Assembly: GCA_017462065.1 (NCBI GenBank)
Contig: JAFTRV010000067.1
Location: 3,237 to 67,236, forward strand
Direction of reading: 5' to 3'
Source of the DNA: Bacteroidaceae bacterium
GTDB taxonomy: Bacteria > Bacteroidota > Bacteroidia > Bacteroidales > Bacteroidaceae
DNA: 64,000 bases
The position numbers and the translations under genes are program-made. Of this stretch, positions 3 to 13,089 are shown piece by piece. The notes beneath the pieces were generated by a model, which did not search any database, had not been told where the DNA came from, and worked only from the letters and a program-made list of their open reading frames with translations. The stretch's first letter is position 1; the number at the start of each line of letters is the position of its first letter.

Positions 3-3000
3 TTCCTTTGGGGCTTTAACCTGTCGTGGAAGAAACAGAGCCAATGGCTCACCAACATTATTGACCGCTTGCCGCTGATAAGCTGCACAGAGCCCTCTTC
101 GATAAGCATCTCGGCAGAGTTCGCAAGGCTCGAGGCCGGCACGTCGAAGCATGTTCAGAGCGAAGCGTCGTACATCGACGACTTCGAAAGCACCGAGAAC
201 GGCATAGACCTCAAGTCGCCGTCGCAATGGCAGCTATCCTCCTTGCCGAGCGGCATGCCCTACAGCAACCTTATTAACGACGTACGCACAGGGTACGACC
301 GCGCACGCATAAGCTGGTATACCATTGACCCGCTGTTCACGCGCCGCAGCTCGTCGCTGACGCCGGCGCACATAAAGAGCGACATGGAACAGCTGTCGAA
401 CCACTACGTGCGCGAGGTGTACGAGAGAGAGCTGTACCCCAACAAAGAATCGACATTCGGAGAGTCCTCGACAATGTCGCTTTTCGACGTAACCTACTAC
501 CCCAACGAGCGCGGCCCGTACAACCTTGACACCGACATGGACTTCAACGGCAAGCTGAACAACCCCGAGAGGCGTTGGGGCGGCATCACACGCCAGCTGA
601 CGACAACCGATTTCGAGAGCGCCAATATACAGTACCTCGAGTTCTGGCTGCTCGACCCGTTCATATACGAACAGATGGGCATGGGCGGCGACCTCTACTT
701 TAACTTAGGCGAGGTGTCGGAGGACATTCTGAAGGACGGCAAGAAGTTCTTCGAGAATGGCTTGCCTGCGACAGGCAACACTTACGAATATGAAGAGACC
801 GCATGGGGCCGTGTGCCTCTGACGACCGGCCTTGTGTACGCCTTTGACAACAATTCGGGCAGCAGAGAGCAGCAGGATGCGGGCTTGAACGGATTGAGCA
901 GCAGCGACGAGGCACAGTTCCCTGTCTACAAGAACTACCTCGACGCATTGAAGGGCCGTGTTAGACAGGAGGTGTACGACAGCATAGCCAACGACCCTGC
1001 CGGCGACGACTACCACTACTTCAGAGGCGGCGACTACGACGCAGCCGAGAAGAGCATCATAGAGCGATACAAATACTTCAACAACACCGAGGGCAACTCG
1101 CCGGAGTCGTCGGGCAACACCTTCAGCAGCGCCGCAAAATCGACTCCCGACATTGAGGATGCCAACCAGGACTTCACGATGGACGAGTACGAGAACTTTT
1201 TCCAGTATAAGGTATCGCTGCGTCCCGAGGATATGCATGTAGGCCGCAACTACATAACCGACAAACGCACAGTAACCACCAAGCTGCGTAACGGAAAGAC
1301 CGAGAGCGTGAACTGGTACAAGTTCCGCATCCCTATCGAAGAGTATGAAAAAGCTGTAGGCTCGATACGTGACTTCACCTCGATACGCTTCATACGAATG
1401 TACATGACATCGTTCGCCAAGCCCGTAACCCTGCGTTTCGCAACCATGCAGCTCGTGAGAGGCACATGGCGTCCTTATCAGCAGCCGATAGCATCGAAGA
1501 ACAACACATCGCCGACAATGTCGGGCGAGTTCACCACATCGGCGGTAAGCATCGAGGAGCATGGCGACAGAAAGCCGGTAAACTACGTGCTGCCTCCGGG
1601 CGTAACAAGAATCATTGACCCGAGCCAGCCGCAGCTGAGACAGGACAACGAGCAGGCTCTTGCATTGAACATCAACAACCTGGGCAGCAAGGAGTCGAGG
1701 GCGGTATACAAGAAGAGCAACCTTGACATACGCCAGTATGAGCGCATACAGCTATACATTCATGCCGAGGCGCCCGAGGCCGATGCCACGCAGCTGAGCA
1801 ACAACGACGTGTCGCTGTTCGTACGCTTAGGCTCCGACTACAAGAGCAACTACTACGAGTACGAGATTCCGCTGCAGCTCACGCCTCACGGCTCGTATGA
1901 CGGCAACAGCACTGCCGCCATGACCGCCGTATGGCCTCAGGAGAACATGATTGACATAAAGCTGAGCAAGCTCACCGACGTCAAGGTGAGACGCAACACC
2001 CTGCGCAACAACAATGCCGAAGGCGTAAGCAACACCACCATATACAGCGAATACGACGAAGAGACTCCCAAGAACAGGATAAGCATTGTCGGCAGCCCGT
2101 CGCTCGGACAGGTCAAGGTGATGATGATTGGAGTACGCAACAACAGCGCAAGCAACAAATCGGCGATTATATGGGTCAATGAGATGCGTCTGCTCGGCTT
2201 CAGCAACAAGAGCGGATGGGCGGCGCAGGGCAACCTAAACCTGAAGCTGTCGGACATTGCCCAGTTCGCTGCTCAAGGAAAGATTGAGACAGCCGGCTTC
2301 GGCGGCCTTGAGGACAAGCTGTCGGCACGCAGTACCGACGACTACTACAAATACTCGCTCACAGGCTCCATGAACGCAGGCCGCCTGCTGCCGAAGTCGT
2401 TCAAGGTATCGGTGCCGCTCTACTACTCGTTCACCGACGAGGTTACATCGCCTCTTTACAGCCCGTTCGACACCGACATCATGCTCGGCGACATGCTCGA
2501 CACATATGACGACGAGAGAAGAGACTCGATAAAGAACATTGCCGAGGTACGTTCAAGGACTCACAACTTCAGCGTAAGCAACGCAAAGGTGAACATAAGC
2601 AGCAAGAAGTCCATGCCGTACGACCCAGCGAACATCAGCTTCAGCTATTCACGCTCAAGCACCGACAACAGCGGAAGCACCATAAGCTGGGAGAACAGGC
2701 TGAACTGGAAAGCGTCGATAGCCTACAACTATTCAAGCCCCATAAAGACTATAAAGCCATTCGGCAAGATTAAGAACAAGTCAAGGTGGCTGAAGATAAT
2801 GAAAGACTGGGGAGTGAACCCGTTGCCGCAGACACTGGCCCTCAGCACCGACATGACACGCACATACCACGAGATACAGCGGAGAGACCTCAATGCCGTC
2901 GCCGGCGGCAACGACATACCGCTCACCTTCTCTCAGCAGTTCTACTGGAACCGTGCCTTCTCGATAAAGTGGGACCCTACAACAAACCTCAGGATGAGCC

Positions 3001-5072
3001 TCAACACGGGAACGAACGCCGAGGTAGAAGAGCCTTTTGTCCCGGTGAACAAGGCGATGTATCCCAACGAGTATGAGATGTGGAAGGACTCTGTCAAGCA
3101 TAGCCTTGCCGACTTTGGCACGCCGCTCGGCTACCAGCAGAACTTTACCGCATCGTACAGCCTGCCGCTCAACAAAGTGCCCGTGTTCGAATGGCTGGCG
3201 GCCGACGTGAGCTACTCGGCGACATACAATTGGCAGAGAGGAAACACAATCTCGGGAGTGAACTTCGGCAATAACATTTCGAACAAACGCAATGTCACGG
3301 CAAAGGCCACGATCAGCTTAGAGAAGCTGTACAACCTTATACCCTACCTTGAGGAGACGAACAAACGGTTCGCAAGCAACAAACGCAAGGCGAATGTACG
3401 CAAGCCTAAGCCAAAGAAGGTGAAGCCGTTCGTGAAGGAGATTGAGATTCGCAAAGACACTACCGTGACCATTGAGCACAACCTCAAGAGCAAAAAGTTC
3501 GAGATTACCGCACGCACCAAGAAAGGCGAGAAATACTGTCTCAAGTACAAAGTCATCGACGACAACAAGATACTTGTCAAGAACAATGACAGCATAGACG
3601 TCAAAGTCACTATTCTGCCAAAGGCAGACAACGGTGAGCGCAGCAAGTTCGCACTGGCCATGCAGTACCCCGTAAGAGCCCTGATGCTCGTGCGTAACGT
3701 GTCGGTGAACTACACCAACGCATATGCCATGAGCCTGCCGGGATTCCTGCCGACGACGGGCGACATATTCGGGCAGAACAAGATTAACGGCGTGTATGCT
3801 CCGGGACTTGACTTCGCATTCGGTTTCACCGATGACAGCTTCTTGCAGAAGGCGCACCGCAACAGCTGGCTGCTGCGCAGCGACAGCGTGGCTTCGGAGG
3901 CGTCGTCCACTGCTGCCGAGGACCTGCAGGTGAGAGTGACGCTTGAGCCTATGAGGGATTTCAAGATAGACCTCAACGCAAACTGGACACGCAACAACAG
4001 CAAGAGCGTACAGTTCATGTACGAGGGCATGCCGTTCAACGAGTCGGGCGGCCTTAACATGACAACAATAACCATAGGCAGCTCGTTCGGCGGCGGCAAT
4101 GCGGCGAACGGATACAAGTCGGCTGTCTACGACAGCTTCGTGAGCAACATCGAAGCGTACCGCCAGAAGACAGAGCAGCTTTACCAGGGAGCCAAATACC
4201 CTGCTTCGAGCACGCTTGCAGGCGAGAGCTACGATGCGGCGAACGGCGGCGTGAACAAATATTCCGCCGACGTGATGATACCCGCATTCCTTGACACATA
4301 TACAGGCATCAAGGGCAACGGCATATTCCCTGAGATGTTCCGCCTGCTGCCTAACTGGAAGATAAAATATTCGGGACTCTCAAAGCTCGAGTTCCTGAAG
4401 AAATACTTCAAGAGCGTGAACATAGAGCATGGCTACAAGAGCGTGTATGCAGTTGGCTCATACAGCACATATGCCACATACATGGAGTACTCGAAGGGCA
4501 TAGGCTTCGTGAACAGCACCACTACCGGACTGCCCGTTCCGAGCGGAAGGTACAATGTGGGCGCAGTGTCGATAAACGAGAGTTTCTCGCCGCTGATAGG
4601 ACTTGACGTCACGACCAACTTCAACCTAACCTTAGGGGGAAAATACATCAAGTCAAGAACGCTCAACATGAGCGTCACGGCAATACAGCTTGTCGAGACA
4701 AGCTCCGAGGAGATAGCGTTCAACATCGGCTACAAGATTGTAAACCTCAAGTTCCTGAACGGCGGCAAGAAGGCAAGCAAGAGCAAGAAAGAGAGCAAGT
4801 CGGGCAGTGGCAACGACATTAACATACGTGCCGACTTCTCGTTCAAGAACAGTTCGTCGGTATGCCGCAGCATAGATAAAGGCACGACACAGGCGACAAG
4901 CGGCAACAAATCGTTCAACTACTCGCTCACGGCCGACTACGCATACAGCAAGACACTTACGTTCAGCCTCTACTTCGACCGTCAGAAGACTATACCGCTC
5001 ATTTCGGCGAACTCATACCCCACATCGACAACAGACTTCGGCGTGAGCATGAAGTTCTCGCTTGCAAGATGA
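3..5072 (+). CDS. sprA: T9SS translocon / gliding-motility protein SprA, C-terminal ~1690 aa; the 5' end lies outside the window
   Basis: The frame is open from nt 3, with no stop before the TTG at 69 that the ORF track uses. It is a single 5-kb ORF encoding a beta-rich outer-membrane-type protein with SprA-like stretches (e.g. RISWYTIDPLF). Stop TGA at 5070-5072. Confidence 0.8.
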   Translation, partial: FLWGFNLSWKKQSQWLTNIIDRLPLISCTEPSSISISAEFARLEAGTSKHVQSEASYIDDFESTENGIDLKSPSQWQLSSLPSGMPYSNLINDVRTGYDRARISWYTIDPLFTRRSSSLTPAHIKSDMEQLSNHYVREVYERELYPNKESTFGESSTMSLFDVTYYPNERGPYNLDTDMDFNGKLNNPERRWGGITRQLTTTDFESANIQYLEFWLLDPFIYEQMGMGGDLYFNLGEVSEDILKDGKKFFENGLPATGNTYEYEETAWGRVPLTTGLVYAFDNNSGSREQQDAGLNGLSSSDEAQFPVYKNYLDALKGRVRQEVYDSIANDPAGDDYHYFRGGDYDAAEKSIIERYKYFNNTEGNSPESSGNTFSSAAKSTPDIEDANQDFTMDEYENFFQYKVSLRPEDMHVGRNYITDKRTVTTKLRNGKTESVNWYKFRIPIEEYEKAVGSIRDFTSIRFIRMYMTSFAKPVTLRFATMQLVRGTWRPYQQPIASKNNTSPTMSGEFTTSAVSIEEHGDRKPVNYVLPPGVTRIIDPSQPQLRQDNEQALALNINNLGSKESRAVYKKSNLDIRQYERIQLYIHAEAPEADATQLSNNDVSLFVRLGSDYKSNYYEYEIPLQLTPHGSYDGNSTAAMTAVWPQENMIDIKLSKLTDVKVRRNTLRNNNAEGVSNTTIYSEYDEETPKNRISIVGSPSLGQVKVMMIGVRNNSASNKSAIIWVNEMRLLGFSNKSGWAAQGNLNLKLSDIAQFAAQGKIETAGFGGLEDKLSARSTDDYYKYSLTGSMNAGRLLPKSFKVSVPLYYSFTDEVTSPLYSPFDTDIMLGDMLDTYDDERRDSIKNIAEVRSRTHNFSVSNAKVNISSKKSMPYDPANISFSYSRSSTDNSGSTISWENRLNWKASIAYNYSSPIKTIKPFGKIKNKSRWLKIMKDWGVNPLPQTLALSTDMTRTYHEIQRRDLNAVAGGNDIPLTFSQQFYWNRAFSIKWDPTTNLRMSLNTGTNAEVEEPFVPVNKAMYPNEYEMWKDSVKHSLADFGTPLGYQQNFTASYSLPLNKVPVFEWLAADVSYSATYNWQRGNTISGVNFGNNISNKRNVTAKATISLEKLYNLIPYLEETNKRFASNKRKANVRKPKPKKVKPFVKEIEIRKDTTVTIEHNLKSKKFEITARTKKGEKYCLKYKVIDDNKILVKNNDSIDVKVTILPKADNGERSKFALAMQYPVRALMLVRNVSVNYTNAYAMSLPGFLPTTGDIFGQNKINGVYAPGLDFAFGFTDDSFLQKAHRNSWLLRSDSVASEASSTAAEDLQVRVTLEPMRDFKIDLNANWTRNNSKSVQFMYEGMPFNESGGLNMTTITIGSSFGGGNAANGYKSAVYDSFVSNIEAYRQKTEQLYQGAKYPASSTLAGESYDAANGGVNKYSADVMIPAFLDTYTGIKGNGIFPEMFRLLPNWKIKYSGLSKLEFLKKYFKSVNIEHGYKSVYAVGSYSTYATYMEYSKGIGFVNSTTTGLPVPSGRYNVGAVSINESFSPLIGLDVTTNFNLTLGGKYIKSRTLNMSVTAIQLVETSSEEIAFNIGYKIVNLKFLNGGKKASKSKKESKSGSGNDINIRADFSFKNSSSVCRSIDKGTTQATSGNKSFNYSLTADYAYSKTLTFSLYFDRQKTIPLISANSYPTSTTDFGVSMKFSLAR

Positions 5073-5073
5073 T

Positions 5074-5144
5074 GATTAACGATTAACGTTTAACGAGGAA
5101 CGTTTAACGAGGAACGAATTAACGATTAACGTATAACGATTAAA
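5074..5144. repeat. Tandem 7-nt repeat array 1: 10 units of G(A/T)TTAAC with variants GAGGAAC, GTATAAC and one 8-nt unit
   Basis: Read directly: GATTAAC GATTAAC GTTTAAC GAGGAAC GTTTAAC GAGGAAC GAATTAAC GATTAAC GTATAAC GATTAAA. The array starts 2 nt after the sprA stop. Confidence 0.9.
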
Positions 5145-5237: not shown

Positions 5238-5307
5238 GATTAACGATTAACGTTTAACGTTTAACGTTTAACGATTAACGATTAGCGATTAACGATTAGC
5301 GATTAAC
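5238..5307. repeat. Tandem 7-nt repeat array 2: 10 units of G(A/T)TTAAC with GATTAGC variants, same orientation as array 1
   Basis: Read directly: GATTAAC x2, GTTTAAC x3, GATTAAC, GATTAGC, GATTAAC, GATTAGC, GATTAAC. Confidence 0.9.
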
Positions 5308-5331
5308 GAGGGCTACATTGTAACCTAAGCC

Positions 5332-5381
5332 ACCTTAGTATCCCTTAGCCTCCCTTAATCGCCCTTAGTTGCCCTTAAACC
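5332..5381. repeat. Five consecutive 10-bp units, each starting (A/C)CCTTA(G/A)
   Basis: ACCTTAGTAT CCCTTAGCCT CCCTTAATCG CCCTTAGTTG CCCTTAAACC. They are preceded by an inverted CTAAG at 5325-5329. Confidence 0.8.
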
Positions 5382-5386
5382 ACCAA

Positions 5387-5429
5387 TACTCAGAGAGCGA
5401 GATTGAAATTCAATCTCGCTCTCTGAGTA
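5387..5429. terminator. 43-nt perfect inverted repeat. Likely the host terminator directly downstream of tRNA-Arg (minus strand), and possibly bidirectional for sprA
   Basis: TACTCAGAGAGCGAGATTGAA-A-TTCAATCTCGCTCTCTGAGTA. By the junction analysis it abuts the element boundary and would sit immediately 3' of the tRNA in an empty site. Confidence 0.55.
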
Positions 5430-5440
5430 CACCTGACGGT
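5420..5440. other. attL junction (host half-site / AC / element half-site)
   Basis: AGTAC at 5426-5430 is repeated at 13016-13020. The GC content drops immediately to the right. The sequence to the right (ACCTGACGG) is the inverted partner of CCGTCAAGT at the other end of the element. Confidence 0.55.
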
Positions 5441-5566
5441 TTCGACTTCGAACTACTATTGAAAGACCTTGACCTAATTTGGGAACTACGAAAATATATC
5501 CCAATAGGTCCGTATCGTTAAAAAACAGACAAGGTTGGTAATGGTATCAAATTGCAAAACACAATC

Positions 5567-5590
5567 AGCACCCCTCTGTGGGTGCTTTTT
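5567..5590 (+). terminator. Rho-independent terminator-like hairpin
   Basis: AGCACCC-CTCTGT-GGGTGCT followed by TTTTT. It lies 46 nt after the stop (5519-5521) of the LSR frame as it would read in the circular form. Confidence 0.55.
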
Positions 5591-5746
5591 ATGTATGTAA
5601 CCTATATCGCTTATCAAATATCATTTTTAGTCGTATAGGTAAAAACTGTTTTTATTTTTTTGTACAGAAATATTTTTCAAAAAAAGTTACTTACTATTTA
5701 CTCTTTTTCTACTTATGCTACTATTTATAATAAAACAGTATTGCTT

Positions 5747-5944
5747 ATGAAAAGAACATACAGAGAATTAAATGATGATACCAAACAGCGTATCAGTCAA
5801 GCCCTCAAAGGGCGTGGTTTGACAGACAACCACAAGCAAGCCATCAGCGATGGTATGAGAGCATATTGGGCAACAATCCCCAATAAGCCAAACGATGGAA
5901 CTAATGAGATTAAAAACAGTATTAACAATGAAAATCAGTGCTGA
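5747..5944 (+). CDS. Small DNA-binding protein with two NUMOD3-like motifs (65 aa)
   Basis: TKQRISQALKGRG and HKQAISDGMRAYW resemble the NUMOD3 K-x-x-I-S-x-A/G-x-x-G pattern. ATG at 5747. Its 3' end overlaps the next gene by 17 nt. Confidence 0.5.
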   Translation: MKRTYRELNDDTKQRISQALKGRGLTDNHKQAISDGMRAYWATIPNKPNDGTNEIKNSINNENQC

Positions 5945-6812
5945 CAAAGTAAAACTATGCTACACACTCTATGAAGACTCTCCATTATATCAACTAATGG
6001 AAACACCCCTCGAAATCTATGAACTCCCACATTGGGATTTTCGCCTTGAAAGGACAGAGGGCAAATATTACAATTACATCTACAAAATCATTTACCTTGA
6101 ACGAACAAGCAACAACCCCAACAGCGAGTACGATATGCAATGCTTTGGTACATTGCGTTGGGGATTGAAAGCAGACAAAGAGGGCGAAATGAGTGGGTTT
6201 GTATGGATTGAGATAGACAACAAGCAACTATACCTCAACTACAATTATAACACCCACAATCGCCTCGTTTACCTCGATTACATAGAGGGCGTATTGGGAT
6301 TGAAATTCCACAACCTTACACGCCTCGACCTCGCTTTCGATGATACCCGAAACCTCTCCAAACGCCTAATTCGTGCCATTCGTGATGAAAACCTAATACC
6401 TATAGTAAACGGCACAAAGGTAACAGACAGGGATAAACTCCTTGAAGATATACTTTACATAGGCGTTGGGTCTTGTCGCAGAATTAAGGAATACAGCCTC
6501 ATAGTCCAGCAGAAGAATGGCGATTTACGCCTCTCTGCATACAACAAGAAAAGAGAAATCGAAAGCAATAGTGGCAAACACTACATCGCAGAAGCCAATG
6601 GCAACCCCAATTACCTTTTTCGTTTAGAGGTTCGTGTAAATGGCGATACCTTGCGAGAATATTTCCAACACTTGGGTATAGAATACAATCCTATGTTGTT
6701 CTGCAACGAAGATTTCCTTTGGCGTTTGTTCCTTGACTTTTCAAACAGAGTGTTACGCTTCCAAACTGTAAAGGGTAAACAGACTCTCGATGTTCTTGAT
6801 ATTGTTGCGTAG
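5928..6812 (+). CDS. Rep_trans-family rolling-circle replication initiator, or MOB_T-like relaxase
   Basis: Motifs typical of PF02486-type proteins: TRLDLAFDD, LRLSAYNKKREIE (R-x-Y-d-K) and FRLEVRV. The internal ATG at 5928 is preferred over 5895. Confidence 0.6.
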   Translation: MKISADKVKLCYTLYEDSPLYQLMETPLEIYELPHWDFRLERTEGKYYNYIYKIIYLERTSNNPNSEYDMQCFGTLRWGLKADKEGEMSGFVWIEIDNKQLYLNYNYNTHNRLVYLDYIEGVLGLKFHNLTRLDLAFDDTRNLSKRLIRAIRDENLIPIVNGTKVTDRDKLLEDILYIGVGSCRRIKEYSLIVQQKNGDLRLSAYNKKREIESNSGKHYIAEANGNPNYLFRLEVRVNGDTLREYFQHLGIEYNPMLFCNEDFLWRLFLDFSNRVLRFQTVKGKQTLDVLDIVA

Positions 6813-6930
6813 GGTATTAGTAAACCACCCTATGAATATATAGTATTTTACTGTAATTGATTGATATAATAGAGAATAATCTATATCAAACCTATGTATG
6901 AAATACACAGTATTGTATCAAACTAAAAAT

Positions 6931-6975
6931 GTATCAAGGTAATCAATAAAAAGACAACCTTGATACATTCTTTTT
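6931..6975 (+). terminator. Rho-independent terminator after rep
   Basis: GTATCAAGGT (6931-6940) pairs with ACCTTGATAC (6957-6966). A T-run follows at 6971-6975. Confidence 0.6.
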
Positions 6976-7034
6976 GTGTTAGTCTAATTTAAAATATTAT
7001 GTTGATAAAATAAGCAATGTGTAATAAATAATAT

Positions 7035-7042
7035 TACATTTG
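7035..7042 (+). promoter_or_regulatory. Bacteroidetes -7 box (TAnnTTTG)
   Basis: TACATTTG lies 18 nt upstream of the ATG at 7060. Confidence 0.45.
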
Positions 7043-7059
7043 TCAAAATTCAATTTGCT

Positions 7060-8055
7060 ATGGCAGAATTAAGAGTAAAAGAGATAATAAACCAAAGGGG
7101 CATATCTGTTCGTGAGTTTGCTCAAATGATAGGTGTTACTCGTGAATATTGTTATTCGTTATTAAAAGGAGAACACGCAAGTCAAAAGATTGTCGAAACT
7201 ATGGGGCGTGTTCTTAATCTTCCTATTAGGGATTTATATACACAACCCGATGAGGTAAAACCAATATACAATCCTTATGAAATTGTTTTTGGCAGAACAG
7301 AACACTACAAACCCAATGATATTGTAACCTTTGGTAAATTGAATGGAAAGTATGGTGCTTTAAGCAATATGAGTACAGTATATCCAGTCGAGTGCTGTGG
7401 ATATAAATTCAAGACAAGCGAACATTTGTTTATTGCCTTACGCTTCTCGGGTTACCCCGATTTACAGCGTGAAGTTATGGAATACAAAAACTCTATGTAC
7501 TGTAAGAAAGTGTTCATAAACAGCAATAAATATACTGATTTCCTATTTCCTCATTGGCGTGAAAATTATTTCGATGTTGAGGTAATGAAGTATATCGTAA
7601 ACTTGAAGTATGCTCAAAATGAGGGTTTTCGAAAGTTGCTTGCAAAGACTAAAGGAAAAATCATTGTAGAGGACACAACAATGCAGAACCATAGTAATAT
7701 GGTATTGCGTTGGGGTTGTCAAGACTTGCAGAAAAAAGACCTTGTAAGGGCAGTGAGAACCTCTACAGAACGTTATATTCGTTCATTTGAGAAAGACGCT
7801 TTGGCAAAGACTGCCTCGCTTAAAAGACCTCGTAGTGCCTCTAAACAGAAATCTTTTGATGATAAACTCAAAGCACAAATACAATCGATGGAAAAGGTCG
7901 TAGATATATGTGAGCAAACAATACTTGCTCAATGTAATTATACTTTAGTGGGCGAAAATGCAATGGGCAAGATACTCACAATACTGCGTGATAATGGTTC
8001 TATTGACCATAAATTTGATTATCCCCTATTCTTATTTGATAATGAAATAAAGTAG
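7060..8055 (+). CDS. Fusion of an XRE-type HTH domain and a NADAR (DUF1768/YbiA-like) domain
   Basis: N-terminus: ISVREFAQMIGVTREYCYSLLKG (HTH). NADAR signatures: YGALSNMS...FKTSEHLFIALRF, then VMKYIVNLKYAQNEGFRKLL...RWG, then GENAMGKILTILRD. An insertion of about 70 aa separates the last two. Confidence 0.7.
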   Translation: MAELRVKEIINQRGISVREFAQMIGVTREYCYSLLKGEHASQKIVETMGRVLNLPIRDLYTQPDEVKPIYNPYEIVFGRTEHYKPNDIVTFGKLNGKYGALSNMSTVYPVECCGYKFKTSEHLFIALRFSGYPDLQREVMEYKNSMYCKKVFINSNKYTDFLFPHWRENYFDVEVMKYIVNLKYAQNEGFRKLLAKTKGKIIVEDTTMQNHSNMVLRWGCQDLQKKDLVRAVRTSTERYIRSFEKDALAKTASLKRPRSASKQKSFDDKLKAQIQSMEKVVDICEQTILAQCNYTLVGENAMGKILTILRDNGSIDHKFDYPLFLFDNEIK

Positions 8056-8070
8056 ATTTTTATATAAAAT

Positions 8071-8115
8071 GATTGCCATCGGCGCAGCCGGTGGCAATCA
8101 ATTATTTATTTTTTT
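8071..8115 (+). terminator. Strong GC-rich hairpin terminator
   Basis: GATTGCCATCGGC-GCA-GCCGGTGGCAATC (13-bp stem with one G-U pair), followed by AATTATTTATTTTTTT. Confidence 0.7.
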
Positions 8116-8144
8116 GATATTTGTAAATAGATGAAATTTATTGC

Positions 8145-8152
8145 TATTTTTG
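8145..8152 (+). promoter_or_regulatory. -7 box (TAnnTTTG)
   Basis: TATTTTTG lies 25 nt upstream of the ATG at 8177. Confidence 0.4.
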
Positions 8153-8176
8153 CGAAAAATCTAATAATATAAGATT

Positions 8177-8428
8177 ATGGAAAATGATAAGAAAATGAAG
8201 ATTGATGTTAATCTTGAAAATAACAAGTATGTTGAGTTAATCAATAAAGGACAATTATTACAAGCTGTAAAAGAATACAAGGAAGATAATAATTGCAGTC
8301 TAAAAGAAGCGAAAGATTATATTGATAATTTGAGGGGATATGACCCTAAAAATGACAATGGAGGTTGCTTGGGAGTTGTTGCATTACTTGTTCTACTATC
8401 ATCAACAGCGATTTATTTTTGTTTATAA
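8177..8428 (+). CDS. 83-aa protein: L7/L12-C-terminal-domain-like motif plus a C-terminal transmembrane helix
   Basis: LLQAVKEYKEDNNCSLKEAKDYIDNL resembles the K-x-I-K-x-V-R-x-x-T-G-L-G-L-K-E-A-K-D-L-V segment of L7/L12. The C-terminus GCLGVVALLVLLSSTAIYFCL is hydrophobic. Confidence 0.5.
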   Translation: MENDKKMKIDVNLENNKYVELINKGQLLQAVKEYKEDNNCSLKEAKDYIDNLRGYDPKNDNGGCLGVVALLVLLSSTAIYFCL

Positions 8429-8444
8429 ATCTGTAAATGTTAAA

Positions 8445-8477
8445 ATTATAGCCACCAGTTAAACTAGTGGCTATAAT
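8445..8477. terminator. Bidirectional hairpin between convergent genes
   Basis: ATTATAGCCAC ... GTGGCTATAAT: perfect 11-bp arms flanked by A/T runs. Confidence 0.6.
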
Positions 8478-8479
8478 TT

Positions 8480-9586
8480 TTATTCGACTAATAACTGCAT
8501 AGCATTTACAACGAACCAAGAGTCAAATCCAACAAAAGTATAAGGTTTGGGATTTGCGCCATCTTTCACAAGTTCTATACCATCACTATATGGTTTGTAA
8601 GACAAGACTTTGGAAATTCCCATTTTTACCTGCTTGTCACCTATGAAATATAAATTCTTGTTGGTAATAATAAAAACTCCTCTGCCCAAGTCATTTTGAT
8701 ATTGATATTCTATAGAATGTCCTTTGCTTGCTCCTACACGATAATACACTCCTTTGCAAACTCTCATACTAACACCACTAGAACCACCAACATACTTACG
8801 CCCTGTCTTTTCCTCATACCCTTTAACATCTTTGAAGACCCAAAGGAGTTGTTCCTTTTTCCCCAATAGAATAGGAAGATTTCCAACAAGAAGTCTTTTT
8901 TCAACATCTTTTCCTTCTTGAATATCCCTTAAAATCAAAGACTGTATTAGTCTTTGGTATGCACTGCTTTTGTAGAGAGTGGCAGTATCAGACAATGAGG
9001 AATATTCAAGGAATTTGCTGATTTGTTCTTCCTCGTTATTATCAATAATACCATCTTCAAGATATTCGTTTATTTTTTTAGACAAGACTAACAGTAGACT
9101 TTCGTTTATGCTTTTAGAAACAGAGTCGTTAATTTTGACCTCTTTCATTAAAGCTTGATATTCCTTGATTTTTTCTTCCTCATCATTCTGCAATGTTAAG
9201 AATTTCAAGAAAAAATAATTCGCCCAAAAATCGTTGTAATGACTTGTGTTTAGAACTTTTTGCTTCAAGTGTTCGGGTATTGAAAACATAAAAGTCTTAA
9301 AACCAATGTAATCAAGCATTACCGCTTTTTTCTTTAACAAATCGTTTAATGCATCTGTTACAATTCCATCAAAAATATCATCGCTTATGTAACCACTAGA
9401 GATGGTATTTGCTAATTCCTCTTTAGCTTCATTGTAATTTGTAAATGAAGATTTAGACTCATTTATGAAAAATCTTCTAGAGAAAATTTTTCTTAATTCT
9501 TCTATTGTAGCAAAATGCTTTTGTTCACACTCTTTATGTTTTGTGCTGAAAAATCCAGCGGGTTTATGGCAATATTTACACTTCAT
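8480..9586 (-). CDS. Protein of unknown function: N-terminal zinc-ribbon-like CxxC...C, helical middle, C-terminal bacterial PH/GRAM-like beta domain
   Basis: MKCKYCHKPAGFFSTKHKEC at the N-terminus. The C-terminus GVFIITNKNLYFIGDKQVKMGISKVLSY is typical of YokE-like bPH domains. It has its own TATATTTG box upstream (minus strand). Confidence 0.55.
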   Translation of the reverse strand: MKCKYCHKPAGFFSTKHKECEQKHFATIEELRKIFSRRFFINESKSSFTNYNEAKEELANTISSGYISDDIFDGIVTDALNDLLKKKAVMLDYIGFKTFMFSIPEHLKQKVLNTSHYNDFWANYFFLKFLTLQNDEEEKIKEYQALMKEVKINDSVSKSINESLLLVLSKKINEYLEDGIIDNNEEEQISKFLEYSSLSDTATLYKSSAYQRLIQSLILRDIQEGKDVEKRLLVGNLPILLGKKEQLLWVFKDVKGYEEKTGRKYVGGSSGVSMRVCKGVYYRVGASKGHSIEYQYQNDLGRGVFIITNKNLYFIGDKQVKMGISKVLSYKPYSDGIELVKDGANPKPYTFVGFDSWFVVNAMQLLVE

Positions 9587-9671
9587 AGCATTTTTTTTGC
9601 AAATATATATTTTTTAAGAAATTAAACACAGGTTGGATAACATTTTTATAAACTAATTGTTAAAGTATGTA

Positions 9672-9914
9672 TTATTCCCCTTGCTTCTTACGCCCCCTAG
9701 TAGTGGGTTTAACATAGAGTGTACCTTTTCTTATGGTACACTTTTTGTTTTTATATATTGGTTCATCACTATCTCCCAACTTGCTGAAATAGTTGTTTAA
9801 TGCCGCTTGTGAGATACCAATTTCCTCTCGTGTGTATTTATCGAATAGTGAAGATGGAGAACCAAAATATTCGTGTCTATCTTCTATCTGTAAATGTAAA
9901 ATCGTTCTTTCCAT
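9672..9914 (-). CDS. Small putative DNA-binding (HTH) protein, 80 aa; candidate element regulator or excision factor
   Basis: IGISQAALNNYFSKLG is an HTH-like segment, and the tail RGRKKQGE is basic. ATG at 9914 is preferred. It is divergent from the SH3-like/resolvase operon. Confidence 0.45.
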   Translation of the reverse strand: MERTILHLQIEDRHEYFGSPSSLFDKYTREEIGISQAALNNYFSKLGDSDEPIYKNKKCTIRKGTLYVKPTTRGRKKQGE

Positions 9915-9931
9915 ATCGTAAATTTGGTGCA

Positions 9932-9956
9932 AAATTAGAGAAATATTATCTAATTT
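9932..9956. promoter_or_regulatory. Operator-like inverted repeat
   Basis: AAATTAGA-9 nt-TCTAATTT in the divergent intergenic region. Confidence 0.3.
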
Positions 9957-9987
9957 GAAATAAAATCATATTTTTATGCTGGATTTT

Positions 9988-10003
9988 TGCTAAAATATTA
10001 GCA
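9988..10003. promoter_or_regulatory. Operator-like palindrome
   Basis: TGCTAA-AATA-TTAGCA, 19 nt upstream of the -7 box at 10022. Confidence 0.3.
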
Positions 10004-10021
10004 GGATTAAAATAGAATAAC

Positions 10022-10029
10022 TATCTTTG
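10022..10029 (+). promoter_or_regulatory. -7 box (TAnnTTTG)
   Basis: TATCTTTG lies 22 nt upstream of the ATG at 10051. Confidence 0.45.
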
Positions 10030-10050
10030 TGGTGTTGAAAGCAAATAGAT

Positions 10051-10422
10051 ATGTTTAACCACTTAACCAATACAGATATGATAGCAGTAGCAAATAATTC
10101 AGTTGTTGTAATAAATAATCTTACAAGTCGTAGAGCCAGCGTAATCGCTCATAGAACCAACAGCGAGGCGATGGGCGTAATCAAGGCACAGATGATTGAC
10201 TTGCTCAAAGCAAAGTTGCAGATGGGTGTTGCTCACTTCGTATATATGAAGAAAGATGGCACGCTTCGTGAGGCGTGGGGTACAACATCAAGCAACCTTA
10301 TGAAAGCAAACATAAATGGCAGAGGCATTTCAAGGGATAGCGTGAACACTGTTTGCTATTGGGATTGTGAAAAGGGTGGATTTCGTTCACTGCGTTTTGA
10401 AAATCTTATTGAGGTTCTTTAA
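10051..10422 (+). CDS. SH3 beta-barrel-fold (DUF2693-like) protein
   Basis: FVYMKKDGTLREAWGTT ... CYWDCEKGGFRSLRFENL matches my recollection of the Bacteroidetes/phage DUF2693 pattern (K-x-D-G ... W-D-x-E-K-x-G-W-R-S-F). Confidence 0.5.
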   Translation: MFNHLTNTDMIAVANNSVVVINNLTSRRASVIAHRTNSEAMGVIKAQMIDLLKAKLQMGVAHFVYMKKDGTLREAWGTTSSNLMKANINGRGISRDSVNTVCYWDCEKGGFRSLRFENLIEVL

Positions 10423-10435
10423 TAGTAGTGGGAGT

Positions 10436-11068
10436 ATGGCAAAGGTCGTTATATACGCTCGTGTAAGCACGCAAGGACAAGACTATGAGCGACAGTTGGC
10501 AGAGTTGCGTGAGTACGCTCGTAAGATGGAATACGAGGTAGTAATGGAGTTCTGCGAAAAGGTTAGTGGCGCAAAGACTGTAGCAGAACGCCAAGCCCTT
10601 ACAGAGTTGCTTTCATTCGTTGAGTGCAACAAGATGGATAAGGTTCTTATCTATGAGTGCAGTCGCTTATCGAGGCGTGCAATAGATTTCCTTACTGTAA
10701 TAGAAAATCTTACAGCAAAGAAAATCAGTGTATATATCCTCCAAAATGGTCTTGAAACACTGCTCCCCAATGGCCAGCCCAACCCTATTGCACAGTTGGT
10801 TATGGGTATTCTTGCGCAGTTTAACAGTATGGAGCGTAGCCTCATAAGAAGCAGAATGGAGAGTGGTTATAATCATTATAGAGCGATTGGTGGCAAGGTA
10901 GGTCGTAAAGAGGGTTATCGTAAAAGCGAGGAAGCAATGAGGGTGGAGTATGCAAAGGAAATCCAACTCTTGCGCAAAGGATTGTCGCTTCGAAATGTGT
11001 CTGCAATTACTTCAACAAGTGTAAATACATTAAGAAAATTAAGAAATATTAACAAATTGCAAGCGTAA
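10436..11068 (+). CDS. Small serine recombinase (resolvase/invertase family) with C-terminal HTH
   Basis: MAKVVIYARVSTQGQDYERQ is the catalytic Ser motif. Also present: ECSRLSRR, the E-helix region and the C-terminal HTH (LSLRNVSAITSTSVNTLRKL). The start at 10436 is preferred over the 10367 extension in the ORF track. Confidence 0.85.
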   Translation: MAKVVIYARVSTQGQDYERQLAELREYARKMEYEVVMEFCEKVSGAKTVAERQALTELLSFVECNKMDKVLIYECSRLSRRAIDFLTVIENLTAKKISVYILQNGLETLLPNGQPNPIAQLVMGILAQFNSMERSLIRSRMESGYNHYRAIGGKVGRKEGYRKSEEAMRVEYAKEIQLLRKGLSLRNVSAITSTSVNTLRKLRNINKLQA

Positions 11069-11079
11069 ATTTGTTTTTT
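11051..11079 (+). terminator. AT-rich hairpin terminator overlapping the resolvase stop
   Basis: AACAAATT-GCAAGCGTA-AATTTGTT followed by TTTT. Confidence 0.45.
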
Positions 11080-11093
11080 CAAAATAAAAAATA

Positions 11094-11101
11094 TATGTTT
11101 G
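11094..11101 (+). promoter_or_regulatory. -7 box (TAnnTTTG) for the LSR operon
   Basis: TATGTTTG. It would place a TSS near 11107, about 240 nt upstream of the first ORF. Confidence 0.35.
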
Positions 11102-11340
11102 CGTTGTTAGGTTTCGAAACTCTAAATAACTCACTGACAACAGCGCAAAAGAGAATATTCCAATAGTGAGTTACAATCAATAAGGACATAGTTAAAAGAC
11201 AAGGTGGCAACCCTTGAAAGAAGTAGTTTGTTGCAAACGAAAGGCAACGAGCAGGTGCTTTACGCCCTAGCGTTTCCTCGTTGTTGGTATGCCACAAAGC
11301 ACCAAAAAATAAGCCACAGAGCATTGTGGCAAGGAAAATT
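11101..11340 (+). promoter_or_regulatory. Structured 5' leader or candidate ncRNA upstream of the small ORF and the LSR gene
   Basis: Several hand-found helices: 11101-08/11139-46; 11127-35/11165-73 (interleaved with the first); palindrome GTTTCGAAAC at 11111-20; 11245-51/11277-83 enclosing ACGC/GCGT; GCCACA/TGTGGC at 11313-30. The region is locally more GC-rich than the rest of the element. Confidence 0.35.
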
Positions 11341-11348
11341 TAAATTAG

Positions 11349-11501
11349 ATGTTAAGTTTAGAAGTATGTAGAAAAATATTAAACAATAGCAGAAAAACAT
11401 ATTCAGATGATGAAATAAAGAAAATCAGACAGTTTTTATACACTTGTGCTGAAATTCAAATAGAAGCAAATAATATTATAAATAAGGAGATAGAAGTATG
11501 A
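11349..11501 (+). CDS. 50-aa ORF translationally coupled (ATGA overlap) to the LSR gene
   Basis: MLSLEVCRKILNNSRKTYSDDEIKKIRQFLYTCAEIQIEANNIINKEIEV. Its TGA (11499-11501) overlaps the LSR ATG (11498-11500). It is too short to appear in the ORF track. Confidence 0.4.
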   Translation: MLSLEVCRKILNNSRKTYSDDEIKKIRQFLYTCAEIQIEANNIINKEIEV

Positions 11502-13048
11502 CAAATGTAATTTTATATTGTCGTGTTAGTAGCGATGAACAAGTAGACGGCACAAGTCTTGACCATCAAGAAAAGACTTTGAGAGAGTATTGCAGATATA
11601 AGGGGTACAATATTATTAAATGCTGTAGAGAGGATTACAGTGCGAAATACCACGATTTCAGAAGACCCGAAATGAAATGGATTTTGAATTACTGTAAGAA
11701 ACACAAAAATGAAGTAGATTTAATTCTTTTTCTACGATGGGATAGATTTAGTCGTAACCCAGAATTTGCACACGCTTTCAAGCGTATATTTATGGATGAA
11801 ATGGGAATAAACTTCAATGCGATTGAAAATCCCATCGACTTTGAAGCAACAGAATGGAGTACCCTTTTCAGTCTTTATGCAGGTATAGCACAGACCGAAA
11901 ATAACAAAATTAGCAAGAGAACAAGCGAGGGCATTAGAGAAGCCTCCCTCAAAGGGCAATGCGCTTTTATGGCACCTAGGGGATATAAAAATGTAAGAAT
12001 GGGTAAACACGATTGCTGTGTTATTATAGACAAAGAGAAAGCACCACTCGTTAGAGCGATTTTCAAAGAGATTGCAAAGGGTGTCAAAGCACCTTGTATG
12101 ATTAGAAAGGAACTTGCAAGTCATATCCCCAACACATCTTTTTACACTATGCTACGCAATGTATTCTACATTGGCAAAATACGAGTAAGAGCCACAAAGA
12201 CAGAACCCGAGGTTATTGTAAATGGTTTGCACGAACCATTGATAAGTGAGGAAACATTTTATAAGGTACAAGAGATTTTGGATGGCAAGTTAAAGAAGAA
12301 ACCAAAAGCCACCAAAACAACAAGGAGTGATTTATATTTGAGAAAGGTATTAGTATGTCCTCACTGTGGTTATGGTATCACAGGAGCGACAAGCAGAGGC
12401 ACTGGAGGGTATTATACCTATTATAATTGTAGTCATAACCCAAAGCATATCAGAGCAAGGGCAGAAAAGGTAAACGATGGATTTGCAGAGTATCTACACA
12501 ACCTTGTACCAAACGAGGAGATATTGGAACTCTACACAGAGATATTAAAGGACATCAATAAGGAGAGCAAAGCAGAAAAGAAATTAACCATCAACAAACT
12601 CAAAGAGGAGATTGAGAAGATAAAGAACAAACTCAACTCTGTTGATGACAAGTTTATTGAGGGCGATATAGATAAAGAACAGTATCAACGAATAAGCGAC
12701 AGATACAAGAGAGAGATAGGAGCAACAGAAGAACGCATTAAAACTCTTGAACTATCAAACAAAGAAAATATCGAACCCAAATTCGATTACTCTATTTCAT
12801 TGATTGCCAATATAGATAAATACCTTAAAGAAGCACCCCCTGAGGTAAAGTTGAAAATCATCAGTTCGATATTTCACGAAAAAATTATATTTGATGGAAA
12901 AAATTATCGAACTAAAAACTACAACAAAATCATTGACCTCATTTATCAGAATACCAACATTTTACAAGAGGGAAAGAATGAAAAAACGGGAGAGGAAATC
13001 ATTCCAATCCCGTCAAGTACCTCAGTCGGGAATCGAACCCGAATCTAA
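11498..13048 (+). CDS. Large serine recombinase (integrase) of the element
   Basis: N-terminal resolvase domain (ILYCRVSSDEQ), recombinase domain, zinc ribbon (CPHCGYG...YYNCSH) and a coiled-coil region. The last 9 codons and the stop (13019-13048) are encoded by tRNA-Arg DNA. Confidence 0.9.
   Translation: MTNVILYCRVSSDEQVDGTSLDHQEKTLREYCRYKGYNIIKCCREDYSAKYHDFRRPEMKWILNYCKKHKNEVDLILFLRWDRFSRNPEFAHAFKRIFMDEMGINFNAIENPIDFEATEWSTLFSLYAGIAQTENNKISKRTSEGIREASLKGQCAFMAPRGYKNVRMGKHDCCVIIDKEKAPLVRAIFKEIAKGVKAPCMIRKELASHIPNTSFYTMLRNVFYIGKIRVRATKTEPEVIVNGLHEPLISEETFYKVQEILDGKLKKKPKATKTTRSDLYLRKVLVCPHCGYGITGATSRGTGGYYTYYNCSHNPKHIRARAEKVNDGFAEYLHNLVPNEEILELYTEILKDINKESKAEKKLTINKLKEEIEKIKNKLNSVDDKFIEGDIDKEQYQRISDRYKREIGATEERIKTLELSNKENIEPKFDYSISLIANIDKYLKEAPPEVKLKIISSIFHEKIIFDGKNYRTKNYNKIIDLIYQNTNILQEGKNEKTGEEIIPIPSSTSVGNRTRI
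13009..13030. other. attR junction (element half-site / AC / tRNA 3' end)
   Basis: CCGTCAAGT-AC-CTCAGTCGG. The AGTAC is shared with attL. The tRNA discriminator and the last acceptor-stem bases are preserved by this microhomology. Confidence 0.55.
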
Positions 13049-13089
13049 GTCTTAGGAGGACCTTATTCTATCCATTGAACTACTAAGGC
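13018..13089 (-). tRNA. tRNA-Arg (anticodon CCT)
   Basis: Cloverleaf folded by hand on the minus strand. Acceptor GCCTTAG/CTGAGGT (two G-U pairs); D stem GTTC/GAAT; anticodon stem AGGTC/GACTT with loop CTCCTAA; 4-nt variable loop; T stem TCGGG/CCCGA with loop TTCGATT; discriminator A. CCA is not encoded. Confidence 0.85.

Follow-up and report, generated by a model that had tools for sequence, protein, structure and literature searches.

A large serine recombinase family of Bacteroidota with its attachment site inside its own gene

Where does the gene of an integrase end when the attachment site lies within its own coding sequence? The question arises in a stretch of 64,000 nucleotides from a Bacteroidaceae bacterium (GenBank assembly GCA_017462065.1, contig JAFTRV010000067.1, positions 3,237 to 67,236 of the forward strand), termed the window here, which holds a low-GC integrated element of 7,588 bp (5431..13018, + strand; GC ~35% compared with ~53% in the flanks, by composition profile). 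The element is inserted at the 3′ end of a gene for tRNA-Arg(CCT), the sole tRNA that ARAGORN finds in the window (13017..13089, minus strand), and a sprA-like gene (69..5072) bounds its far side. Its ends were set by comparing junctions with those of three related loci (L003, L005 and L008). It carries the gene of a large serine recombinase (LSR), whose open reading frame (ORF) runs on into the tRNA (Table 1). It is very probable that the element entered the 3′ end of the tRNA gene by means of this LSR, using an attachment site, attP, that lies within the LSR gene.

The LSR gene and its junctions

Codons 1–507 of the integrated gene are element DNA, and codons 508–516 with the stop are host tRNA DNA read in antisense. 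Codon 508 starts at 13019, and the closing TSVGNRTRI-stop is taken from the antisense of the acceptor stem and T arm, just as an earlier reading of the sequence (the original prediction) had it. When the two ends of the element are joined, the frame continues in phase from 5431 for a further 30 codons (TPDGFDFELLLKDLDLIWELRKYIPIGPYR-stop), giving a protein of 537 aa. The sequence AGTAC is present at both ends, and joining ...CCCGTCAAGT-AC to ACCTGACGGTTT... generates attP as CCGTCAAGT-AC-ACCTGACGG, in which eight of nine positions are complementary about AC; a palindrome of at least 8/9 at one fixed centre has a chance of about 1e-4. In a sister copy (L008), which has CCGTCAGGT and whose right end reads CCGTCAGGTAC, the palindrome is 9/9. 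The ends share only the 5-bp core, which is compatible with two-base staggered cleavage and with recombination of attP and attB free of host factors, but is proof of neither. The tRNA is called intact after insertion by ARAGORN; its discriminator base A73 (13018) and the base after it now come from the element and match exactly the host bases that were displaced. Thus the palindrome about AC and the preservation of the tRNA 3′ end by AGTAC, both part of the original prediction, stand.

Comparison of near-identical copies places the right boundary. The 90%-identity cluster of the window LSR contains proteins with three different C-termini, and in the DNA an identical ...CCCGTCAAGTAC is followed by three unrelated flanks. 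After ...AAGTAC the flank is CTCAGTCGGGAATCG at the window tRNA-Arg, TCCCGACGAGAATCG at another tRNA-Arg(CCT) (L003/L004; protein tail ...SSTPDENRTRISALGEPHSIH) and ACCACCATGTAAATCC at a non-tRNA site (L005-7; protein tail ...SSTPPCKSIA). LSRs more than 90% identical diverge directly after ...AAGTAC, which shows the tail to be host DNA and sets the right boundary at GTAC; SVGNRTRI is absent from these copies elsewhere, and the view that it is encoded by the element can be set aside. The sister copy is identical to the window element from ACCTGACGG onward, with a different upstream flank. The 3′ remnant of a second LSR gene makes up this flank and is fused in frame (...EEITPIPRGTPDGFDFELLLKDLDLIWELRKYIPIGPYR-stop): the junction runs from ...GGTAC into ACCTGACGGTTTCGAC..., and is open to ...IPIGPYR-stop. 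This is a natural intact junction of the attP type. In another locus (L001) the LSR ORF of a 52%-identical homologue is followed, with no tRNA between, by homologues of the two left-end genes of the window element, which we read from its gene order as the excised (or a tandem) arrangement. Both natural junctions place the join where it had been predicted rather than elsewhere. Intact attP junctions in nature are thus found in L001, L008 and L015/16, together with many short ORFs made of an LSR remnant and the tail.

The short ORFs (50–130 aa) are LSR 3′ remnants fused across an intact attP to the conserved tail, and they are very numerous; our examples come from L008 (4174-4389), the left flanks of L015, L016, L060 and L085, and proteins P0285-P0404, and one of them, P0319, is present on 280 contigs. 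Their structure suggests that copies accrete in tandem beside the tRNA and that the older one then decays, possibly because attR (P-B′) can serve again as a target. The insertion at the non-tRNA site lies upstream of an NTP_transferase gene (L005 5630-5665, L006 and L007), the left end of the element being off the contigs, and looks like use of a secondary attB. At L004 (1826-1900) the 5′ acceptor GCCTTAG of the tRNA-Arg(CCT) is unpaired with the 3′ strand CGGGAGT, where L003 pairs correctly; chimeric assembly or damage to the tRNA could explain this. Recurrent tails containing ..PRPAFEI.. were considered as intact forms and rejected: at L012 (11679-13070) a tyrosine-integrase element lies between the LSR element and the tRNA and is the source of the LSR tail ..PRPAFEITKSG.., which recurs in several database proteins.

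In all the tests of sequence and structure that could be run, the window enzyme behaves as an LSR, its fold being modelled through a homologue. Pfam matches are PF00239 (E = 3.8e-24), PF07508 (8.7e-11) and PF13408 (1.1e-5; 26.1 bits against a cutoff of 25.3), making it a serine recombinase, with no tyrosine recombinase catalytic domain. In a sequence search of the PDB the alignment was confined to the catalytic domain and is uninformative on the tail. The structure tests were done on P0096, an intact-form homologue 52% identical to the window LSR. Its AlphaFold2 model has long antiparallel helices at 343-390 and 396-421, as expected of the coiled-coil insertion in an LSR zinc-ribbon domain, a linker at 497-508 that is predicted to be disordered (pLDDT, the per-residue confidence score, <50), and then a helix at 517-531, NSFLRDLDKIWELRE, with pLDDT ~91. 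The top Foldseek matches of the model are the integrases of SPbeta (9dxd, 9dxh), Bxb1 (9iu2), phiC31 (9tep) and LI (4kis), each with a probability of 1.00.

The attachment site and the detached tail

The position of the crossover can be approached through the family. Symmetry scores of attP summed over 17 reconstructed sites reach 84 on the AC of GTAC, compared with ~40 elsewhere. The T-loop motif TCGAA stands at +13 in the right arm of attB in all 20 scored loci; 17 of these loci, among them the window, have it at +18 in the right arm of attP. In LI integrase the motif bound by the zinc-ribbon domain (ZD) occupies positions 16-24 of the attP half-sites and 11-19 of those of attB, a shift of 5 bp (Rutherford et al.; PMC3783163). 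In LI numbering TCGAAC ends at 24 in attP and 19 in attB, the published limits of the ZD motif, and this match provides independent support for the AC centre. We infer that AC, corresponding to tRNA positions 71-72 on the other strand, is the crossover centre, in keeping with the AC-centred core first proposed. The spacing of TCGAAC also suggests that many tRNAs are recognized via the universal T-loop.

The P arm appears to have a further role on the opposite strand. An antisense hairpin within the LSR linker codons begins 3 nt after A73 on the tRNA strand, and with its U-run it is predicted to take the place of the displaced tRNA terminator. Across 64 distinct loci this segment has a mean minimum free energy of −18.6 kcal/mol, compared with −6.7 for control antisense segments of the same genes (Mann-Whitney p = 5e-35), and the T-run is present in 52 of them. 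The sequence of the stem changes from clade to clade and the structure is kept. Since A73 and the next base are supplied along with the hairpin and U-run, the element restores both the last bases of the tRNA and a putative terminator.

The sequence parted from the LSR gene is found at the left end. A conserved small gene marks the left ends of these elements, 3-7 kb upstream of the LSR, and just upstream of it there is an open frame without a start codon that encodes (L/I)FSNxFLxDLxKIW(E/A)LRxxIPDP. Left ends were anchored on this gene and the tail motif; a search for the longest direct repeats was dropped, the repeats being only 5-8 bp and several loci mis-assigned. When each LSR was joined to its own left end via the short shared core, in-frame proteins of 535-557 aa with the tail resulted at 20 loci and in the window, a count that includes one locus (L086) whose junction was wrongly assigned. 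The tail has a proportion of synonymous differences (pS) of 0.84 and of non-synonymous differences (pN) of 0.25, and hence a pN/pS of 0.30, compared with 0.76 for the linker; it is more conserved than the linker preceding the core. Pairwise identity by codon position is 0.69, 0.80 and 0.415, the third position being the most variable. The extreme C-termini within the window clade vary (GPYR, YSKK, YSVR and LQGW), and the conserved part is an internal amphipathic helix. Thus the detached tail is a real protein segment under purifying selection. A hairpin and T-run (5567-5586) follow the tail stop, which fits the complete 3′ end of a gene parked at the left end. In a search with a profile of the tail the best 120 matches were only short remnant ORFs, P0096 not among them, and this yields no count of full-length intact forms.

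How widespread is this layout? The 120 homologues closest to the window LSR (506-594 aa, with 50-62% identity) come from Bacteroides, Alistipes and others and can be aligned only to about residue 507, and 97 of them end in peptides antisense to the tRNA T arm, such as ..SVPRPGVEPGW or ..PRAGVEPARVAPLVFETSASTDSAIWA. At the level of the genome we analyzed 80 related loci drawn from Bacteroidaceae, Rikenellaceae, Prevotella, Muribaculaceae and Paludibacteraceae; in 74 an antisense tRNA is entered by the LSR ORF, whose stop lies 9-83 codons (median 14) past the tRNA 3′ end. The targets are tRNA-Leu-CAA (36 loci), Arg-CCT (14), Met (7), His (6), Arg-CCG (5), Leu-TAA (3) and Leu-CAG (3). The species-representative genomes do not include the host species, and the best locus match to the window LSR has 63% identity over a partial alignment, or ~60% over the full protein. 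An exhaustive HMMER search (E<1e-30) gave 714 cluster representatives at the 50%-identity level; the top 150 include 137 full-length proteins, with identity down to 30%, of which about 100 end in T-arm-antisense motifs, and in an internal control segment the same pattern gave 7-13 matches. The layout was confirmed in the DNA of a member only 37% identical (L093). It is shared throughout an integrase family of very large size in Bacteroidota of gut and rumen, and its presence in 74 of 80 loci together with the conservation of the tail as protein makes it more than chance. Beside this, a distant LSR with an intact tail (P0187, ..GLFSNQLFDEFRRLYDLKPFVP..; L094 8001-9644) adjoins genes for a relaxase and a type IV secretion system coupling protein on a 37-kb contig, which suggests that the family also serves larger mobilizable or conjugative elements.

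Some observations weigh against the arrangement as we read it. The P arm lacks a matching motif of the TCGAAC type, and the site is asymmetric. Neither the circular junction nor the empty site of exactly this element, predicted as CCCGTCA(A/G)GTACACCTGACGGTTTCG and CTCTCTGAGTACCTCAGTCGGGAATCG, respectively, was recovered from viral contigs, metagenomes and species-representative genomes. The predicted attP 20-mer had no match in viral contigs, where no relatives were found either; its sole metagenome match (L002) was on an unrelated high-GC contig and was put down to chance. The predicted empty attB 33-mer was absent from the species-representative genomes, and eight reconstructed 537-aa variants had no exact match in the protein collection, a weak result as one substitution defeats the look-up. 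Lastly, GTAC is common to all the junctions, so that their comparison alone cannot separate AC from GT, and in the tRNA-His subgroup the score is best on the GT of GTGC. Strand exchange within the same layout at GT (13017-13018), or at some other dinucleotide of AGTAC, nevertheless seems unlikely: the palindrome of the window and the summed symmetry of the family both centre on AC, it is AC that sets TCGAAC exactly at the published ZD limits, and TA is palindromic and hence unsuitable for a crossover. It is highly improbable that the ORF crosses attP incidentally, the left end being conserved as a DNA-binding P′ arm and the protein complete at about residue 507. TCGAAC of P′ and its neighbouring bases are indeed conserved as DNA, third codon positions (TCG AAC) included, and the linker before the core is poorly conserved, as such a reading would have it. 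But the conservation reaches ~85 nt past the centre, far over the 25-bp half-site; third codon positions are the least conserved, with the low pN/pS given above; the frame is open and in phase in 20 independent reconstructions in two frame registers; and AlphaFold2 predicts a confident helix for the tail.

What the tail might do

On this evidence attP lies within the recombinase gene some 30 codons before its natural stop. In the excised circle the gene would be continuous, encoding the 537-aa protein and ending at the terminator at 5567-5586. From its N-terminus this protein would comprise the catalytic, recombinase and zinc-ribbon/coiled-coil domains, a C-terminal region, a disordered linker and the conserved amphipathic helix (..DLDLIWELRKYIP..), with the P arm and core housed in the linker. 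On integration the final 30 codons, along with this terminator, are parted from the gene and left behind at the far left end, and the body of the gene then reads antisense tRNA to a chance stop, giving the 516-aa form. The tRNA would be recognized by its near-universal T-loop TCGAAC, acting as the zinc-ribbon motif of B′ (+13), whereas P′ carries it 5 bp farther from the centre (+18). The P arm restores the discriminator base, and the antisense hairpin and U-run through the linker codons would end the tRNA transcript.

The 516- and 537-aa forms presumably differ in function. The likeliest role for the tail would be to tune directionality or activity, so that the full enzyme is made by episomal copies alone. 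As the full-length protein would come only from the excised circle, when integration is needed, integration has to be possible with the tail in place. Single copies that have integrated are tail-less, in a family that plainly moves, and thus the tail-less form is probably competent in excision; it may work together with the product of a conserved 50-aa ORF. In SPbeta integrase the extreme C-terminus occupies a pocket beside the coiled-coil hinge and contacts the directionality factor as a 'toggle switch'; excision requires it, whereas integration does not (bioRxiv 10.1101/2025.01.03.631226). Control of directionality can therefore reside in the C-terminus of an LSR. By analogy, we tentatively suggest that the enzyme could switch itself: a C-terminal helix made only from the circle would hold the coiled-coil in an integration-competent state, and its deletion by integration would leave a resident enzyme competent in excision. 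If so, directionality would be written in the topology of the DNA, independent of a separately regulated directionality factor.

The SPbeta precedent conflicts with such self-switching, since by analogy it predicts that the tail would be needed for excision, and integrated copies are without it in a family that is clearly mobile. The same requirement for the C-terminus in excision favours a lock-in like the partition of SSV-type integrases, in which loss of the tail cripples the integrated enzyme and excision needs a full-length copy from a tandem P-P′ neighbour or a co-resident episome. Tandem and remnant structures with restored intact junctions are moreover very common. We think this doubtful, because the occupation of many tRNA sites in many Bacteroidales families, along with the contig of apparently excised type (L001), argues for regular excision of single copies. 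The tail might instead be a degradation or instability tag that makes the episomal enzyme short-lived and the integrated form stable, as in mycobacteriophage BPs (PMC4557955). A few distant tails of the intact type do end in ..AA or ..TA (P0166, P0168, P0185 and P0188), but this too is unlikely, as the variable extreme C-termini of the window clade are not ssrA-like and the conservation lies in the internal amphipathic helix. A further alternative is that the two forms are functionally alike.

To our knowledge, in characterized LSR systems attP lies outside the integrase ORF, and a search of the literature gave no exception. In other respects the window enzyme resembles the canonical LSRs (LI/A118, Bxb1, phiC31 and SPbeta SprA), sharing their domain order, the AlphaFold2 fold of its homologue, a pseudo-palindromic attP around a non-palindromic dinucleotide, minimal direct repeats at the junctions, and a ZD motif 5 bp nearer the centre in attB than in attP; with SPbeta it further shares a C-terminus proposed to act in directionality control. 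It differs in that their usual targets are protein-coding genes, whereas here attP is in the ORF, insertion is at a tRNA 3′ end and the C-terminus is set by the state of integration. Expression of a recombinase depends on sequences joined across the attachment site in the sib retroregulation of lambda, through a 3′ RNA element, and in Tn4451, through a promoter formed at the circular joint. In contrast to the window LSR, these alter RNA stability or transcription and not the sequence of the protein.

Archaeal SSV-type integrases also have attP in their own gene and a tRNA target, and the gene is partitioned on integration; however they are of the non-homologous tyrosine class, and the SSV gene is divided into two substantial parts (PMC8371274), whereas the window LSR gene loses no more than its final 30 codons and terminator, and a near-full-length fusion ORF stays. 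In the integration-dependent immunity of BPs attP is likewise in the 3′ part of a phage gene whose C-terminus and properties differ with state, but the split gene is a repressor, the integrase is a tyrosine recombinase and an ssrA-like degradation tag is lost, where here it is the recombinase itself and a conserved helix (PMC4557955). Islands inserted by tyrosine integrases (Islander) similarly use the tRNA 3′ end and restore the displaced bases, through a tRNA identity block of tens of bp (PMC4383910); the window element shares only 5 bp, apparently uses a T-loop protein-binding motif and replaces the terminator. The full-text literature, in which subscription journals were thinly covered, yielded no LSR with attP in its own ORF and no LSR family targeting tRNA 3′ ends, and the original impression that the layout is undescribed for LSRs is upheld to that extent. 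A large survey of LSRs and att sites nowhere mentions tRNA (PMC10083194), and in a review of integrative mobilizable elements those with serine recombinases insert within protein genes (PMC5704250).

This would be the first family of serine integrases with attP inside its own coding sequence, and one in which the C-terminus records the state of integration. Such a natural two-isoform system makes the control of LSR directionality open to test. It suggests an LSR route to tRNA genes, classically the territory of tyrosine integrases, with the T-loop apparently read as a zinc-ribbon motif, and this would explain the spread of one family over Leu, Arg, His and Met tRNAs. A single stretch of 35 nt would serve as protein linker, attP arm and putative antisense tRNA terminator, an extreme case of overlapping information. 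In practice, thousands of these LSRs stand in databases with C-termini that derive spuriously from tRNA and with their true tails missing, and mining them for genome engineering would lead to the wrong protein being cloned. For each member, the end of the gene directly reveals attP and attB.

The element and its surroundings

The features of the locus are collected in Table 1.

Table 1. Features of the integrated element and its target in the window
Feature	Position	Strand	Basis or remark
LSR ORF, integrated form, 516 aa	11498..13048	+	Pfam Resolvase, Recombinase, Zn_ribbon_recom; ORF list; 932 homologues
Detached LSR 3′ 'exon', encoding (T)PDGFDFELLLKDLDLIWELRKYIPIGPYR, stop 5519-5521; no start codon of its own here	5431..5521	+	Translation, conserved motif, pN/pS
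Terminator-like hairpin and T-run, 45 nt past tail stop	5567..5586	+	Likely LSR terminator in excised form
Antisense hairpin (12985-13014) and U-run in LSR linker codons	12981..13014	-	ΔG −16.1 kcal/mol, z −3.8
attR core AGTAC; inferred crossover dinucleotide AC 13019-13020	13016..13020	.	Family symmetry peak, ZD-motif spacing
attL core AGTAC; AC at 5429-5430	5426..5430	.	Sequence
P arm of attP, within LSR codons ~499-507; half-site CCGTCAAGT	12994..13018	+	Sequence
P′ arm of attP; half-site ACCTGACGG; TCGAAC 5448-5453, +18 from centre	5431..5455	+	Sequence
B′ arm of attB, antisense tRNA acceptor and T arm; T-loop TCGAAC 13033-13038, +13	13021..13045	+	Sequence, ARAGORN
Integration target tRNA-Arg(CCT)	13017..13089	-	ARAGORN; mature 3′ end A73 at 13018
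Displaced native hairpin, 21 bp in fold; B arm and original tRNA terminator before insertion	5387..5429	-	ΔG −35.9 kcal/mol, z −9.3
Small serine recombinase of the element (resolvase/invertase type)	10367..11068	+	Pfam, PHROGs, NCBIfam
50-aa ORF overlapping LSR start codon; candidate accessory/directionality factor	11349..11501	+	Present in 45 related loci

The 50-aa ORF has the sequence MLSLEVCRKILNN..IRQFLYTCAEIQIE, for which a search gave no family match. A small serine recombinase is encoded upstream of the LSR (10367-11068), and related elements (L005, L008 and L012) also carry one; dimer resolution of the episomal form is one possibility for its role. An exact-product look-up of a Rep-like protein gave no match. 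As cargo there is a gene (7060-8055, + strand) for a fusion of helix-turn-helix and NADAR domains, which scores 95.8 bits against the NCBIfam model of the NADAR-family anti-phage proteins, below the curated cutoff of 240. The host spacer that separates the sprA-like gene from the tRNA terminator contains tandem repeats at 5074-5143, 5238-5309 and 5333-5377: two blocks, each with ~10 copies of the 7-bp GATTAAC, and 4.5 copies of a 10-bp unit, CCTTAGTCGC.

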